A DNA stretch of 64,000 nucleotides from Candidatus Krumholzibacteriota bacterium (GTDB taxonomy: Bacteria > Krumholzibacteriota > Krumholzibacteriia > LZORAL124-64-63): assembly GCA_039714075.1 (NCBI GenBank), contig JBDLKA010000003.1, positions 1 to 64,000 on the forward strand, read 5' to 3'. Of this stretch, positions 43,590-57,515 are shown in pieces. The notes under the pieces were generated by a model, which was not told the origin of the DNA, did no database searches, and saw nothing but the letters and a program-made list of their open reading frames with translations. How positions within the stretch are numbered: the first letter of the stretch is position 1; the number at the start of each line of letters is the position of its first letter. Both the position numbers and the translations under genes were made by a program.

Positions 43590-43806
43590 GCGTCACTCCT
43601 GTCAATTCCCTGAATCTCTCGGGCCTGGCTCGCCGGGTGCAGGCAGGAGACGTAGACGGACCGTTCGCACCCGGGAATTCGGAAATCTAACATCTGGCCA
43701 CGGTCGGAGCAATGGGCGAGAAATCCAGCGCGAAATCCTGCGTCCGAACACGTGATGTGCTACTATGCCTGCGCAACCGGCGATCCTGCAACCTCGAGGC
43801 CCCTTC

Positions 43807-46362
43807 ATGCGGAACCTGACCGTATATCCCGAGAGCATTTTTGAGCGGACCACTCGTCTGGCGGGCCTGTTTCTGCTGGCCCCCGTCCTGATGATCCTGA
43901 CCCTGCCGGTCCTGTTGCACATCAATCAAAAACCCGAGTTCGGCTTTTCGGTCGTCAGGCAGGAAGTGGTCGAAATCGTCCACTCCGGTCCGGCCGACCA
44001 GGCGGGGCTGCGCAAGGGCGACACCATCATGGCCATCGACGGGCTGCCCGTCAGCGACATGCCCACCTACTTCGCGGCCCTGGCCGGCCGGTACGATTTG
44101 ACGCCTCTTCCGGTAGAGTTCCGGCGGGGAATCACCAAACGGATCCTGATCATAATTCCCACGCCGCCGACGCAAGGGGTCATGATCCGCAGTTACGGGG
44201 TCTGGGTTTCCGGACTCGCCTTTTTGATGATCGGCTTCTGGGTTCTTTTGCGCCGGCGTGATCCCGTGGCCCGCAATTTCTTCTCCCTGTGTTTCATCTT
44301 CGCCTTTTTCCTGCTGGACATACCCGACCACACCAACGTCACATACATGGTGGCCAAGGAACTGATCCGGTATCTGTTCCAGCTTTTGCTGCCGGCCTAC
44401 TTCCTGCGGTTTTTTCTCCAGTTCCCCAGCTCCCGCAGCAGGTCGGCCCGCGAAAAGATCCAGCTCCGGCTGCTTCTGGTTCCGGGTTGGGTGCTTTTCG
44501 GGATATTCGCCTGGTTGTTTTTCCTGAATCCGGTGCCCGGCGGCATCGTGGAATCCACCCTGGAAATCGTTTCCCTTATCTATCTGCTGGGCTACTTCCT
44601 GACCGGGCTGGCCATATTCGCCCGCAGGGTCATGCGCCGCGACCGTCCCATCCAGCAAACCAAGCTGAAGGTCATCCTGTGGGGCCTCATCTGCGGCCTG
44701 GCTCCTTTCATTGCAGGCATGGTCCTGGGAAACCTCGGCCCGGGGGCCTCCCTCCCCCAATTGCAGTACCTGGCCTTTTCCCTCCTGCTGGTCCCGATCA
44801 GTTTCGGCATGGCCATTTTGCGCTACGGAGCCCTGGACCGGGCCTTTGTCGTCCGCGCCAGCATCATCTACGGCCTGCTCACCGTTCTGGTGCTCCTGAT
44901 ATATTTCGTGATCGTCCTGGGCCTGGGTGAATTCCTGGGGCGGATTTTCAAGGTCGATACCTACGGGGTCCTGCTGGTGGTCATGGCCGGCAGCAGCCTG
45001 GCCATCCTGCCTTTGCGCCGCTGGATCCAGGGCACCATCGACAACGCCTTCTATCCCGCCCGCCGCGCCAACCGCCGCACCATGACAGTCCTGGCGGACC
45101 GCCTGACCGGCCTGATCGACCCCGAAGAAGTCATTCAGACCCTGCTGACAAGTCTCGACGACCTTTTCCGGCCCGACACCATTGCCCTGTTCCTTTCACC
45201 GGGCGACGGACAGGGGCCTTTCAAGGCCCGCTTGCCCGCGGAAGATACCGGGGGTCCTCACCGGAATGTCCGGACCGCCGAGACGGACCCCGCTCCCCCG
45301 GAGGACTATCCGCTCCTGGACCAGGGCAGCGGGCTGGCCATCCTGCTGAACCGGATCCGTCGGCCCGTGTTCACCGAGGAGTTTGAAGATCTCCTGTTTT
45401 CCGGGGACACGGACCTGGCCTCGCTCAAGGTTTTGACCCGCATCCGGGCCGTCCTGCTGGTGCCGATGATCGGGGGCAACCGCCTGGTGGGGTTCCTGAC
45501 TTTCGGCCCCAAGAGCAACGGCGCCCTCTACAGCCAGGAGGAGTTGGCCAACCTGAGGGCCCTGGGGATCCAGGCCGCCTCCCTGATCGAGAGCCGCCAA
45601 CTCTATCTGGAAAGCCTCGGCCGCAAACGCCTGGAAACCGAACTCGAGGTCGCGCGTGACATCCAGGGCCGCCTGCTGCCCACCGGACCGTTGGATACGG
45701 ATTTTTTCAGCATCTGCGGCCGCAACGAACCCTGCCGCATGGTGGGTGGGGATTATTTCGACTATTTCCACCTTGAAGACGGCAGTCTGGGCTTTGCCAT
45801 AGCCGACGTTTCCGGCAAGGGCATCCCCGCGGCCCTGATGATGACCTCCCTGGTTGCCGCCTTCCGCCGGGAGGCCAAGGCGGGCACGGGCCCGCGCCGC
45901 GTCATGGACCGGCTGAACCCCGTGGTGGCCTCGCTGGTGTCGGCGGGCAACTTCATCTGCCTGTTTTTCGGAATATGGAATCCGGACACGGGAGTGGTCC
46001 ACTATTGCAATGCGGGCATGGATCCCCCGATCCTGTTCCGGCCCCGGGCCTTCTACCGGCAAAAGCTCAAAAGGGGCGGTCCCGTACTCGGGGTCGAGCC
46101 CAACCGGCACTACCGGGAGGGCGCGCTGGCCCTCGAACCCGGCGACCGCCTGTTCATGTTCACCGACGGCATGACCGAAGAGCAGAATCCCCTGGGGGAT
46201 TTCTTTGACACCGAACGCCTGCTGGACCTGGTTGCCGACAACCTGGAATCTTCCCCATTGCGCCTTATCGACAAGATTTTTTCCGCCGTCAATGCGTTTG
46301 GCGGTGAAGAGAAGACGGATGACAAGACTGCAATCGTATTGGAAATAAAGAACCTACAATAA
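43807..46362 (+). CDS. Membrane sensor phosphatase: PDZ + multi-TM + GAF + SpoIIE/PP2C (RsbU-like)
   Basis: GPADQAGLRKGDTI (PDZ), TM block, LVP...LVGFL (GAF-like), VGGDYFD, ADVSGKG, NAG, FTDG, DDKT. Confidence 0.9.
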   Translation: MRNLTVYPESIFERTTRLAGLFLLAPVLMILTLPVLLHINQKPEFGFSVVRQEVVEIVHSGPADQAGLRKGDTIMAIDGLPVSDMPTYFAALAGRYDLTPLPVEFRRGITKRILIIIPTPPTQGVMIRSYGVWVSGLAFLMIGFWVLLRRRDPVARNFFSLCFIFAFFLLDIPDHTNVTYMVAKELIRYLFQLLLPAYFLRFFLQFPSSRSRSAREKIQLRLLLVPGWVLFGIFAWLFFLNPVPGGIVESTLEIVSLIYLLGYFLTGLAIFARRVMRRDRPIQQTKLKVILWGLICGLAPFIAGMVLGNLGPGASLPQLQYLAFSLLLVPISFGMAILRYGALDRAFVVRASIIYGLLTVLVLLIYFVIVLGLGEFLGRIFKVDTYGVLLVVMAGSSLAILPLRRWIQGTIDNAFYPARRANRRTMTVLADRLTGLIDPEEVIQTLLTSLDDLFRPDTIALFLSPGDGQGPFKARLPAEDTGGPHRNVRTAETDPAPPEDYPLLDQGSGLAILLNRIRRPVFTEEFEDLLFSGDTDLASLKVLTRIRAVLLVPMIGGNRLVGFLTFGPKSNGALYSQEELANLRALGIQAASLIESRQLYLESLGRKRLETELEVARDIQGRLLPTGPLDTDFFSICGRNEPCRMVGGDYFDYFHLEDGSLGFAIADVSGKGIPAALMMTSLVAAFRREAKAGTGPRRVMDRLNPVVASLVSAGNFICLFFGIWNPDTGVVHYCNAGMDPPILFRPRAFYRQKLKRGGPVLGVEPNRHYREGALALEPGDRLFMFTDGMTEEQNPLGDFFDTERLLDLVADNLESSPLRLIDKIFSAVNAFGGEEKTDDKTAIVLEIKNLQ

Positions 46363-46388
46363 TTCCCGCCCGGCGGTCCCCTTCTTGC

Positions 46389-46415
46389 TCAAGTAAGGAT
46401 GGACCCGGCCGATGA
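46389..46415 (+). promoter_or_regulatory. sigma28 (FliA/SigD)-type promoter P1
   Basis: TCAAG-N14-GCCGATGA. Confidence 0.55.
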
Positions 46416-46444
46416 TCAGGGGTTTCGCGGGTGCGAAATTTCCC

Positions 46445-46471
46445 TCAAGGCCCCAGCCTTCCGGCCGATTC
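46445..46471 (+). promoter_or_regulatory. sigma28-type promoter P2
   Basis: TCAAG-N14-GCCGATTC, same geometry as P1 and 56 bp downstream. Confidence 0.55.
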
Positions 46472-46521
46472 CCTTTTAGTCCGCATCGTTTCACATCAGT
46501 CCTGGAAAGGGGGGGATCGGC

Positions 46522-46590
46522 ATGGTGCCGGAAACTTATATCCTGGTTGGCTTGTCGTTGATCGATCTCTTTTGGTGGTTGAGAAAATGA
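46522..46590 (+). CDS. Unannotated 22-aa hydrophobic peptide MVPETYILVGLSLIDLFWWLRK (Fst/Ldr type I toxin-like)
   Basis: Strong purine-rich SD GGAAAGGGGGGGA before the ATG; hydrophobic core with WWLRK end; terminator immediately downstream. Below the ORF-track length cutoff. Confidence 0.55.
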   Translation: MVPETYILVGLSLIDLFWWLRK

Positions 46591-46603
46591 CACACGCGAT
46601 CTA

Positions 46604-46646
46604 GCCCCTGGCTGCCGGTTCTCGCCACGGTCAGGGGTATTTTTTT
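46604..46646 (+). terminator. Intrinsic terminator on the plus strand
   Basis: Stem GCCCCTGGCTG / CGGTCAGGGGT, whose G-U pairs work only on the plus strand, followed by T7. Confidence 0.75.
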
Positions 46647-46660
46647 GCCCAAAATCACGC

Positions 46661-47047
46661 TCAAACCGCCGGCCAGATCTGCCGCGCGGACATGAATCCC
46701 AACCAGACAGCCCCCAGCCCGAGAATGAGATTGGCCGAAACGTTGAGCAGGGCCAGGTGGGAAGCCCCGTCCTGCAGGTAGCGCAGGGTCTCGTAGCCGA
46801 AGGTGGAAAAGGTGGTGAAGGCCCCCAGGAAGCCCACGGCCAGCAACATGCGCAGCGGATGCGTCACCAGGGCGGTACCGCGGTCCAGTTCCAGCAGAAA
46901 GCCGAGGGCCAGACAGCCCAGCACGTTGACCATGAGGGTCCCGAAAGCAAAGTGGCTGCCCAGGGACCGTTCGGCCAGGATGCCGACTCCGTAGCGGGAC
47001 ACCGCTCCGGCGGCACCCGCGATTCCGACCAGAAACAGGGATTGCAA
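46661..47047 (-). CDS. crcB: Fluoride efflux channel CrcB/Fluc
   Basis: GAAGAVSRY, GTLMVNVLGC, GFLGAFTTFSTF. Confidence 0.95.
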   Translation of the reverse strand: MQSLFLVGIAGAAGAVSRYGVGILAERSLGSHFAFGTLMVNVLGCLALGFLLELDRGTALVTHPLRMLLAVGFLGAFTTFSTFGYETLRYLQDGASHLALLNVSANLILGLGAVWLGFMSARQIWPAV

Positions 47048-47120
47048 GGCCAGTCCTCCCTAGATCATATGAAGGCGGCCGGACACCAGGCCCGGCCACC
47101 GCGCTCATCCGGATCCGAGG

Positions 47121-47705
47121 TCAGGAACCGATAACGTTCTTGACGGCCGCTTCGTAGGTTTCCTTGCCGAAGCCCCCCACCCATTTCTCCCGGATGACGC
47201 CCTCGCGGTCGATCAGGAACGTCGTGGGGATGCTCTGGATCCCGCCGAAAGCGGTGATGAGGTTGGGATCGTTGTTGAACATGACCATTTCAAAGGTAAG
47301 CCCGTTGTTCACGGTGTAGGAGCGGACCTTGGCCTCACCTTCACGCCCCATGGCCACGCCGACAACCACCAGGTCGTCGCTGTAGGTCTCGCTGAGTTCC
47401 TGCAGATGCGGCATGGCCCTGCGGCAGGGCGGGCACCAGGTATCCCAGAAATCCAGGATGACGGCCTTGCCCTGCAGGCTGGACAGCTGGAGATTTCCGC
47501 CATTGATTTTCCTGAGGGTGAAATCCGGCGCGGGGCCCCCTTTGCGGGCCACGACCGGACGGGCGGGTTGGGTATCGGTCCCGGCATTCTCGGCGCCGGT
47601 TTCACCCTGCTCCGACCCGCAGCCGGACAGGGCCAGGGTGCCGCAGGCAAGAATGAAGATGGCGAGCACCAATCCAGGTATATTAAGAACCGTCTTTCTG
47701 CGCAC
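47121..47705 (-). CDS. TlpA/ResA-like thiol-disulfide oxidoreductase lipoprotein
   Basis: Lipobox LSGC, APDFTL, DFWDTWCPPC, IPTTFLID. Confidence 0.92.
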   Translation of the reverse strand: MRRKTVLNIPGLVLAIFILACGTLALSGCGSEQGETGAENAGTDTQPARPVVARKGGPAPDFTLRKINGGNLQLSSLQGKAVILDFWDTWCPPCRRAMPHLQELSETYSDDLVVVGVAMGREGEAKVRSYTVNNGLTFEMVMFNNDPNLITAFGGIQSIPTTFLIDREGVIREKWVGGFGKETYEAAVKNVIGS

Positions 47706-56928: not shown

Positions 56929-57009
56929 GGCGAAAACCTCCGGTTGGGGACGAAAAAGCTGCGGCACACCGACAATTTCCCTGAAATAGGCCGTTACGGC
57001 CATTCAATC

Positions 57010-57036
57010 TAAAGTCAAAGACGGTTCGGACGATCA
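57010..57036 (+). promoter_or_regulatory. sigma28-like promoter upstream of the cheY-like gene
   Basis: TAAAG-N14-GACGATCA. Confidence 0.45.
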
Positions 57037-57134
57037 TTCTGTTGACCCGGATGTTTCGGGTAAACAGAAAAAAATCACCAGGGTGCCGGAAATTTCAACC
57101 CGGCCACGACCTGTAATGTCACTTTTGGAGGTGC

Positions 57135-57515
57135 ATGTTGGGCCACACCATCCTCATCGCGGACGACGCCGAATTCATGCGGGACATGCTCCGCCAGATC
57201 ATCGAGGACATGGGTTGGACCGTGGCTGGTGAAGCCGGTGACGGGACGGAGGCCATCACCCAATACCGGAAAATAAAACCCGACCTGCTGCTACTGGACA
57301 TCACCATGCCCAACCTGGACGGCACCCAGGCCCTGAAGACCATTCTGGCGGACGACCCCCACGCCCAGATTGTCATGATCACGGCCCTCGGTCAGAAGGA
57401 CCAGGTTCTCGACGCCATCAAGGCCGGCGCCAGGGATTTCATCATCAAGCCCTTCGATCATGACCGGGTCGCCGACACCCTCCACCGGATCCTCGCCCCC
57501 AGTCCGGTTGCCTGA
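57135..57515 (+). CDS. Single-domain response regulator, CheY-like
   Basis: IADDAEFMR, LLDITMP, MITALGQ, GARDFIIKPF. Confidence 0.92.
   Translation: MLGHTILIADDAEFMRDMLRQIIEDMGWTVAGEAGDGTEAITQYRKIKPDLLLLDITMPNLDGTQALKTILADDPHAQIVMITALGQKDQVLDAIKAGARDFIIKPFDHDRVADTLHRILAPSPVA

Follow-up and report, generated by a model that had tools for sequence, protein, structure and literature searches.

Does the gap between two convergent genes, one for a large membrane protein ending in a phosphatase domain and the other for a crcB-like fluoride channel, hold a transcription unit of its own, and if it does, what could the product of that unit do? The question arises in the 64-kb window, by which we mean the whole stretch of DNA that was analysed, where 298 bp (46363-46660) separate a plus-strand gene (43765..46362) from a minus-strand gene (46661..47047). 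A preliminary description had put this gap at roughly 300 bp, in agreement with our measurement, and had read it as a hidden unit with tandem sigma28-type promoters, a strong Shine-Dalgarno (SD) sequence, a 22-codon ORF and a plus-strand terminator. The SD, the micro-ORF (46522-46590) and the terminator were each located where it had placed them, and the idea of a separate unit stands, since a translated-looking ORF, sigma28-type promoters and terminator are kept in relatives. Thus, a hidden transcription unit read from raw sequence could be validated by comparative genomics alone. The remaining genes of the window are housekeeping genes, and an Rfam scan of 46200-47300 at E≤10 returned nothing relevant, the fluoride riboswitch included. 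Among sequencing runs, this DNA was located in two DNA runs from a single marine metagenome study and in no RNA run. The features of the locus are as follows:

43765..46362, plus strand: upstream gene for an 865-aa membrane protein (Pfam: PDZ, transmembrane region, GAF, C-terminal SpoIIE)
46374..46389, plus strand: sigma54-type promoter-like element CGGTCCCCTTCTTGCT (consensus score 17/21; inferred start at about 46400)
46389..46413, plus strand: sigma28-type promoter-like site P1, TCAAG-N14-GCCGAT (inferred start at about 46422)
46445..46469, plus strand: sigma28-type promoter-like site P2, TCAAG-N14-GCCGAT (inferred start at about 46478)
46462..46481, plus strand: 5' arm of a predicted anti-SD helix (pairs with 46505-46524 in minimum free energy folds; overlaps the -10 of P2)
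46504..46515, plus strand: Shine-Dalgarno sequence GGAAAGGGGGGG (ends 6 nt 5' of the ATG at 46522)
46522..46590, plus strand: micro-ORF MVPETYILVGLSLIDLFWWLRK, 22 codons and TGA (conserved in relatives)
46605..46646, plus strand: intrinsic terminator (stem 46605-46614 / 46628-46637, then TATTTTTTT; RNAfold)
46661..47047, minus strand: crcB-like fluoride channel gene (Pfam CRCB, 2e-26)

Comparison among genomes showed that the unit is conserved in its ORF, its SD, its promoter-like elements and its terminator, as well as in its place after a phosphatase gene. The reading that we favor, with a probability of about 0.55, is that of a small-protein gene with its own sigma54- and sigma28-type promoters, SD and terminator, the peptide of which would work together with the neighbouring receptor-type phosphatase.

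Conservation and coding signal of the micro-ORF

The whole gap is 77-88% identical in the seven other genomes of the genus (7/7). With blastn, the core encoding IDLFWWLRK and a stop codon was found to recur in many other genera, and all 20 of the loci fetched from these matches had an SD, a start codon, about 20-22 codons with the same C-terminus, and then a hairpin. A degenerate DNA pattern for D-x-[FL]-W-W-L-R-[KR]-stop matched exactly once in each of 80 of the 91 genomes of the family (25 of 28 genera), while the reversed pattern, used as a control, gave one match in total; the ORF that had been picked out in one sequence is thus conserved in its relatives, and in single copy. Over the whole class, which here equals the phylum, the pattern was present in 100 of 208 genomes.

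The groups that were missed by the pattern were inspected downstream of the phosphatase homologue or around matches to a looser pattern. Two genera of the family carry ..DLFWWLKK, ..DLWWWLRK and ..DLYWWLRK variants (4/4 loci). Forms of only 15 residues, MRIELVDLLWWLRKR and MLTWCLIIDLLWWLR, were found in two further families, where the first inspection located the ORF at 10 of 12 loci; the other two were resolved later, the ORF being farther downstream in one case and on the opposite strand in the other. Forms of 16-18 residues ending in ..DLFWWLRD or ..WWLKD occur in family f5 (4/4 loci), and forms of 15-17 residues in family f7 (3/3 loci); MLVIFLNLLDLFWWLKD is another conservative variant from the groups outside the pattern. 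Altogether, variants of 15-23 codons were found in seven of the nine families of Krumholzibacteriota, and the remaining two gave only doubtful matches of the looser pattern. This looser, phylum-wide DNA pattern produced many control matches, so its tallies were discarded and individually inspected matches alone were counted. The core shared by all the variants is D-x-x-W-W-L-R/K at the C-terminus.

A scan of one genome per species over bacteria and archaea gave 100 loci, 84 of which are SD-preceded micro-ORFs. Matches in other phyla occurred at about the frequency expected by chance and showed none of the features of the ORF, with one exception. In a genome of Candidatus Eiseniibacteriota (L178, L187), an SD-preceded ORF of 28 residues and a longer ORF both end in IDLLWWLRR, and the peptide family may therefore reach beyond Krumholzibacteriota. 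Ten versions of the peptide were checked against a collection of about 15 billion predicted proteins and none was present; six strings of 6-8 residues from the conserved C-terminus had no occurrence in the searched literature, and no NCBIfam or PDB sequence matched the peptide above threshold. Bacterial small-protein genes are known as a kind; what is new here is the family itself, together with its pairing to a PP2C receptor. Genes of 15-23 codons are missed by standard gene calling, and annotation missed this one, although few features of its locus are as well conserved in this uncultured phylum.

In 50 aligned sequences, M1, D15, W18, W19, L20 and R21 are invariant, an invariance that is partly fixed by the sampling pattern; position 10, by comparison, is occupied by G, T, S, V, A, L or M. 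At the nucleotide level the picture is one of freedom at synonymous sites. The Leu that follows the two Trp residues is encoded by six different codons across the loci, Arg by AGA, AGG, CGT, CGC, CGG or CGA, the stop codon is TGA, TAG or TAA, and synonymous variation is found at each degenerate position of the pattern. Column entropies for codon positions 1, 2 and 3 are 0.90, 0.39 and 1.16, respectively, with the sampling pattern partly fixing positions 1 and 2 of the last eight codons. Five codons lie outside this bias (-14 to -10), and three of them combine a low entropy at position 2 (0.31-0.45) with a high entropy at position 3 (1.26-1.58); we take these three to carry the signature of hydrophobic codons, in which position 2 is constrained and positions 1 and 3 are free. 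Moreover, an SD-like run (5-6 of 6 matches) precedes the start codon in all 65 parsed loci. The synonymous codon changes, together with the strong SD, argue for translation of the micro-ORF, and a real small regulatory protein, rather than a toxin, appears the most likely product.

The last 27 nt of the ORF (46564-46590) are identical across at least seven genera, with flanks at about 75-80% identity. The same 27 nt use TTT, TTG, AGA and AAA, which are A/T-ending or A/T-rich codons, in a genome of 62% GC. This identity hints at an additional constraint at the nucleotide level. A single-sequence fold shows a hairpin in the 3' part of the ORF; RNAalifold found no consensus structure for this part, and the hairpin was not considered further.

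Promoter-like elements and terminator

The preliminary description had noted two copies of TCAAG-N14-GCCGAT and had read both as sigma28-type promoters. Exactly two copies, at 46389 and 46445, are present in the 64-kb window, where 0.05 are expected, and none of 100 shuffles gave two. A count over all 4.06 Mb of the genome showed no enrichment of the exact motif, with seven occurrences at N14, one to six at other spacings and about 4.8 expected. Enrichment was confined to intergenic DNA, where 10 motif matches were found at N14, P1 and P2 accounting for two of them, against 0-6 at other spacings. The halves of P1 and P2 are kept, with variable spacers, in all eight genomes of the genus, and those of P1 also in L018, L021, L022 and L082. 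A site of the form T[ACT]AAG-N14/15-G[CT]CGA[TA] is found in 28 of 43 distinct loci of the family, nearly always 72-80 nt before the ATG, and in none of the 16 loci scored from two other families.

The sigma28 consensus is of the type TAAAG-N14-GCCGATAA. Upstream of flagellin genes across the family, the motif was present at 19 of 30 loci, as compared with 41 of the 3205 gene upstream regions (1.3%) of the window genome, and this difference calibrates it as the FliA promoter of the lineage. One flagellin-upstream example, from a genome of the same genus, reads CCTAAAG-N14-GCCGATGATGG, and the -10 of P1 with the bases that follow it (CCGGCCGATGAT) recurs unchanged upstream of a flagellin gene in L053, also of this genus. 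The genome encodes the sigma28 factor that such promoters call for: fliA (TIGR02479, 269.8 bits against a cut-off of 189.6; C1:36321-36995) adjoins flhA, flhB and fliPQR inside a flagellar cluster with fliE-J, flbD, motAB, fliPQR and flhBA, with fliW and csrA upstream. The conserved halves, the match upstream of flagellin and the presence of fliA bear out the sigma28-type reading of both sites. A weight matrix built from eight flagellin sites ranked P1 112th and P2 230th of 1638 matches, but only these eight of the 30 flagellin sites fit the strict layout, and the matrix, which was noisy and gave mostly intragenic top matches, was not relied on.

The genes that lie behind motif matches in the window genome code for a response regulator, a PilZ protein, a pilin-like protein, PilM and a hybrid kinase, as well as EF-Ts, a molybdopterin oxidoreductase, peptidases and others, and are mostly not flagellar. 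We have not retained a sigma28 regulon drawn from these matches, as most of its members are chance matches unrelated to motility. At 57008-57037, a sigma28-like site, TCTAAAG-N14-GACGATCAT, lies 98 nt before the gene for a single-domain response regulator (57135-57512; Response_reg, 1.8e-29), which is a possible target of FliA. Flagellin (Flagellin_N, Flagellin_C) was not found in the 92%-complete assembly from which the window comes; it is present in 39 of 41 genomes of the family, and its absence here is likely due to an assembly gap. In family f9, most genomes, among them two single-contig genomes of 3.8-4.3 Mb, keep the ORF and have no FliA match above the cut-off; the presence of the micro-ORF does not track that of fliA.

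A further element, absent from the first reading of the gap, overlaps the -35 of P1. The sigma54 promoter consensus is GG-N10-GC in a TGGCAC / TTGC context, and at 46374-46389 a GG (46375-76) and a GC (46387-88) are 10 nt apart. We scored this element against the consensus TGGCACG-N4-TTGCW, with a maximum of 21. The copy in the window genome scores 17, which 12% of shuffles attain, and in the genus the element is weak at its -24 half. Over all the loci scored the signal is stronger: 57 of 59 loci score 17 or more (12% of shuffles) and 41 of 59 score 18 or more (2.7% of shuffles), with the element 85-182 nt before the ATG. Other families have stronger homologous elements (TGGCACGCTTTCTGCA, GGGCACGGGCCTTGCT, GGAACGCTTCTTGCT), and with its occurrence at f3, f4, f5 and f7 loci this is the promoter-like element common to all the families examined. 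The genome codes for RpoN (440 bits) and for sigma54 activators. The simplest history would have an ancestral sigma54 promoter to which sigma28 sites were added in the family of the window, a clean case of promoter turnover on one tiny gene.

Downstream of the ORF lies a hairpin (46605-46637), with TATTTTTTT after it. A simple terminator scan with a loop limit of 8 missed this hairpin because its loop is longer. RNAalifold, run on 40 sequences of the family, predicted the stem, with compensatory changes on both sides in seven of its 10 pairs. The T-run is weak or absent in some relatives. In other families the hairpin is a different one, conserved in sequence (GTTCCCG...CGGGAAC), and a T-run may or may not come after it. 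Just 5' of the stem and 11 nt past the stop of the ORF, the triplet at 46602-46604 is TAG, TGA or TAA in the -1 frame in most members of the family, and in the window genome it ends a -1 frame ORF of 57 residues (46431..46604). The last base of this triplet changes in step with the one immediately 3' of the stem (GC 13, GU 12, AU 8), and may extend the stem.

SD accessibility and the toxin reading

The preliminary description had gone further and proposed that the peptide is a Fst/Ldr-like type I toxin or a motility modulator, with the choice of promoter setting its translation: a transcript from P1 would bury the SD, and one from P2 would expose it. The pairing on which this model was built, 46464-46477 with 46508-46521, is present in the minimum free energy folds of the long transcripts; in transcripts that start at 46400 or 46422, 46462-46481 pairs with 46505-46524. 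Folding of the long and short transcripts gave the difference that the model requires for the window genome, where the probability of the SD being unpaired is 0.16 in the long transcript and 0.36 in the short one (from 46478), and for the genus, where the SD is more open in the short transcript in seven of eight genomes. This difference is absent, however, across the 28 orthologues in which both starts are predicted (mean SD unpaired probability of 0.27 against 0.28; short above long in 15 of 28), and the anti-SD helix is not conserved outside the genus. Moreover, the degree to which the native leader buries the SD was matched by seven of 60 dinucleotide shuffles, and at seven other loci by 35, 10, 2, 6, 59, 33 and 11 of 60; because the SD is G-rich and the leader C-rich, the two pair easily. 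A switch by promoter choice is thus unsupported for the family at large, and the folds leave it as a possibility within the genus.

As for the peptide, type I toxins of the Fst, Ldr and Ibs kind are also short and hydrophobic, with a basic C-terminus, a strong SD and, as in the window genome, a leader able to pair with the SD, and Ldr toxins have two Trp residues before the basic residues as the micro-ORF peptide does. Nevertheless, none of the 50 aligned members matched the Fst_toxin or Ldr_toxin profiles of Pfam at E≤10, and the G-x8-W-L-basic spacing that had suggested the likeness is not conserved, as the Gly at position 10 varies. Unlike these toxins, the micro-ORF is a single-copy gene with a fixed synteny across the phylum, its peptide has an invariant Asp within the hydrophobic run, and its 15-residue forms keep the motif. 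A scan of 45800-47400 for promoters of the sigma70 type gave no promoter-like site on either strand, and thus no antisense promoter of this type. Single copy, fixed synteny, retention of the motif in the 15-residue forms and the lack of a profile match do not fit a type I toxin, and the model of a toxin with a promoter-choice switch, which we consider very improbable, is the least supported of the readings. Matches below the cut-offs were to CydS (4 of 50 members, E 0.01) and VEGFR-2_TMD (1 of 50) in Pfam, and to PEP-CTERM (3 of 50) and MYXO-CTERM (2 of 50) in NCBIfam. The PEP-CTERM-like arrangement (VPE, helix, RK) was set aside, as the matches are sub-threshold and confined to three of 50 members, and the N-terminus is not conserved.

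The neighbouring phosphatase and possible roles of the peptide

The product of 43765..46362 has a SpoIIE domain at residues 672-861 (7.9e-48), together with PDZ_6 (1.3e-07) and GAF_3 (1.2e-06) matches; its membrane region is multi-pass, and the PDZ sits between the first and second hydrophobic segments. At all the loci examined, the micro-ORF comes after a gene for a protein of about 830-980 residues that ends in a SpoIIE/PP2C phosphatase domain, with the micro-ORF inverted in one genus, and the upstream gene ended in a SpoIIE domain at eight of eight further loci from four other families. Full-length homologues of the phosphatase are widespread in the phylum. A PDZ was detected in two of the seven full-length orthologues scanned; an eighth held the C-terminal part only.

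With the preferred reading of a small-protein gene, the unit would be transcribed from promoters of its own, an older sigma54-type element found throughout the phylum and, in the family of the window, two sigma28 (FliA)-type promoters. Its transcript would be translated from the strong SD and ended by the intrinsic terminator. The functional product would then be the 22-residue hydrophobic peptide, the conserved part of which is the C-terminus: a hydrophobic run, Asp, two variable residues, Trp, Trp, Leu and Arg or Lys. From the conserved neighbourhood, the peptide could be a small membrane-associated subunit or a feedback regulator of the phosphatase, and in the family of the window the sigma28 sites would link its expression to that of the late flagellar genes. 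The notion of a membrane helix is weakened by the 15-residue versions of three families, which are too short to span the membrane. MgrB, a small membrane protein that acts on PhoQ, offers a precedent for feedback on a membrane sensor. Like MgrB, the micro-ORF codes for a very short hydrophobic peptide with few conserved residues, has its own promoter and is encoded beside a signalling system or controlled by one; in contrast, its neighbour is a PP2C-type phosphatase and not a histidine kinase, its promoters are of the sigma54 and sigma28 types, and its peptide, at 15-23 residues, is shorter than the commonly cited examples of such proteins.

A more specific version, which we put forward tentatively, is that the peptide of 15-23 residues is a dedicated small subunit or feedback regulator of the PDZ-7TM-GAF-PP2C receptor phosphatase, and that its promoter was rewired from sigma54 to sigma54 with two sigma28 sites. 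In any case, the large receptor-type PP2C phosphatase gains in this peptide a concrete candidate for a partner. If the specific version is correct, no microprotein partner of such a partner-switching phosphatase would have been described before, and the rewired promoter would link signalling by the phosphatase to the assembly of flagella in one family.

Other roles for the unit are less likely than that of a small-protein gene. It seems unlikely that the ORF codes for a cis-acting leader or arrest peptide, the C-terminal residues of which would act from within the tunnel of a ribosome at the stop codon to govern the formation of the downstream hairpin or transcription past it. TnaC and TrpL are peptides of this kind, encoded by short ORFs that have tandem Trp codons, conservation close to the stop and a hairpin beyond it. 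The micro-ORF resembles them in these respects: its conservation is concentrated in the last 8-9 residues beside the stop, with an N-terminal part that varies in length (15-23 residues in all), it has tandem Trp codons, and a hairpin always follows. However, because the next gene is mostly convergent, the micro-ORF lacks a same-strand downstream gene, and a leader peptide would have nothing downstream to regulate. Also, the distance from stop to hairpin ranges from about 6 to 45 nt between families, and a tail of 0-2 residues after the Arg or Lys that follows W-W-L means that motif and stop are at no fixed distance.

A regulatory small RNA of the sigma54 and sigma28 regulons, for which the ORF would be secondary or part of a dual function, is in our view improbable. 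The predicted transcript, about 170-250 nt long and provided with promoters and a terminator of its own, would suit such a role, as would the identity of the last 27 nt of the ORF across several genera. UhpU, MotR, FliX and FlgO are sigma28-dependent small transcripts of E. coli. The existence of such RNAs in E. coli is documented (PMC10578931). They are likewise short, driven by the flagellar sigma factor and terminated on their own, but are UTR-derived and act by base pairing. The transcript of the micro-ORF, in contrast, encodes a peptide on which selection acts at the amino-acid level, and in lineages without FliA it occurs with promoters of the sigma54 type. Farther relatives change synonymous sites and keep the peptide, the 3' part of the ORF has no conserved structure, and Rfam gave no match at E≤10 over 46200-47300. 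Equally improbable is an exported peptide that serves as an autocrine ligand for the neighbouring phosphatase, at its periplasmic PDZ or its sensor part. PDZ domains bind peptide ends, and the location of the neighbour's PDZ between the first two hydrophobic segments would suit such a ligand; yet the C-terminal tail varies in length and can be basic or acidic, no exporter or processing gene was seen nearby, and most of the full-length orthologues scanned gave no PDZ match.

A few observations concern the neighbourhood itself. The gene downstream of the micro-ORF is mostly convergent, and crcB occupies this position only at loci of the genus of the window, where it lies between the micro-ORF and a gene for a thioredoxin-like lipoprotein. 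In genus g37, each of the phosphatase matches crosses one in-frame stop, TAG in six genomes (G048, G070, G072, G075, G076 and G077) and TAA in one (G073); possible causes are an alignment that extends 5' beyond the real start codon and a split gene. Finally, at L265 (G147:C1:1690400-1691300) and in other genomes of its genus, which belongs to another family than that of the window, a micro-ORF, MEVITVLPILSIVLIIDLFWWLR, follows the phosphatase gene on the opposite strand, together with a sigma54-type element and a hairpin, an arrangement that we interpret as a local inversion that left the unit intact.
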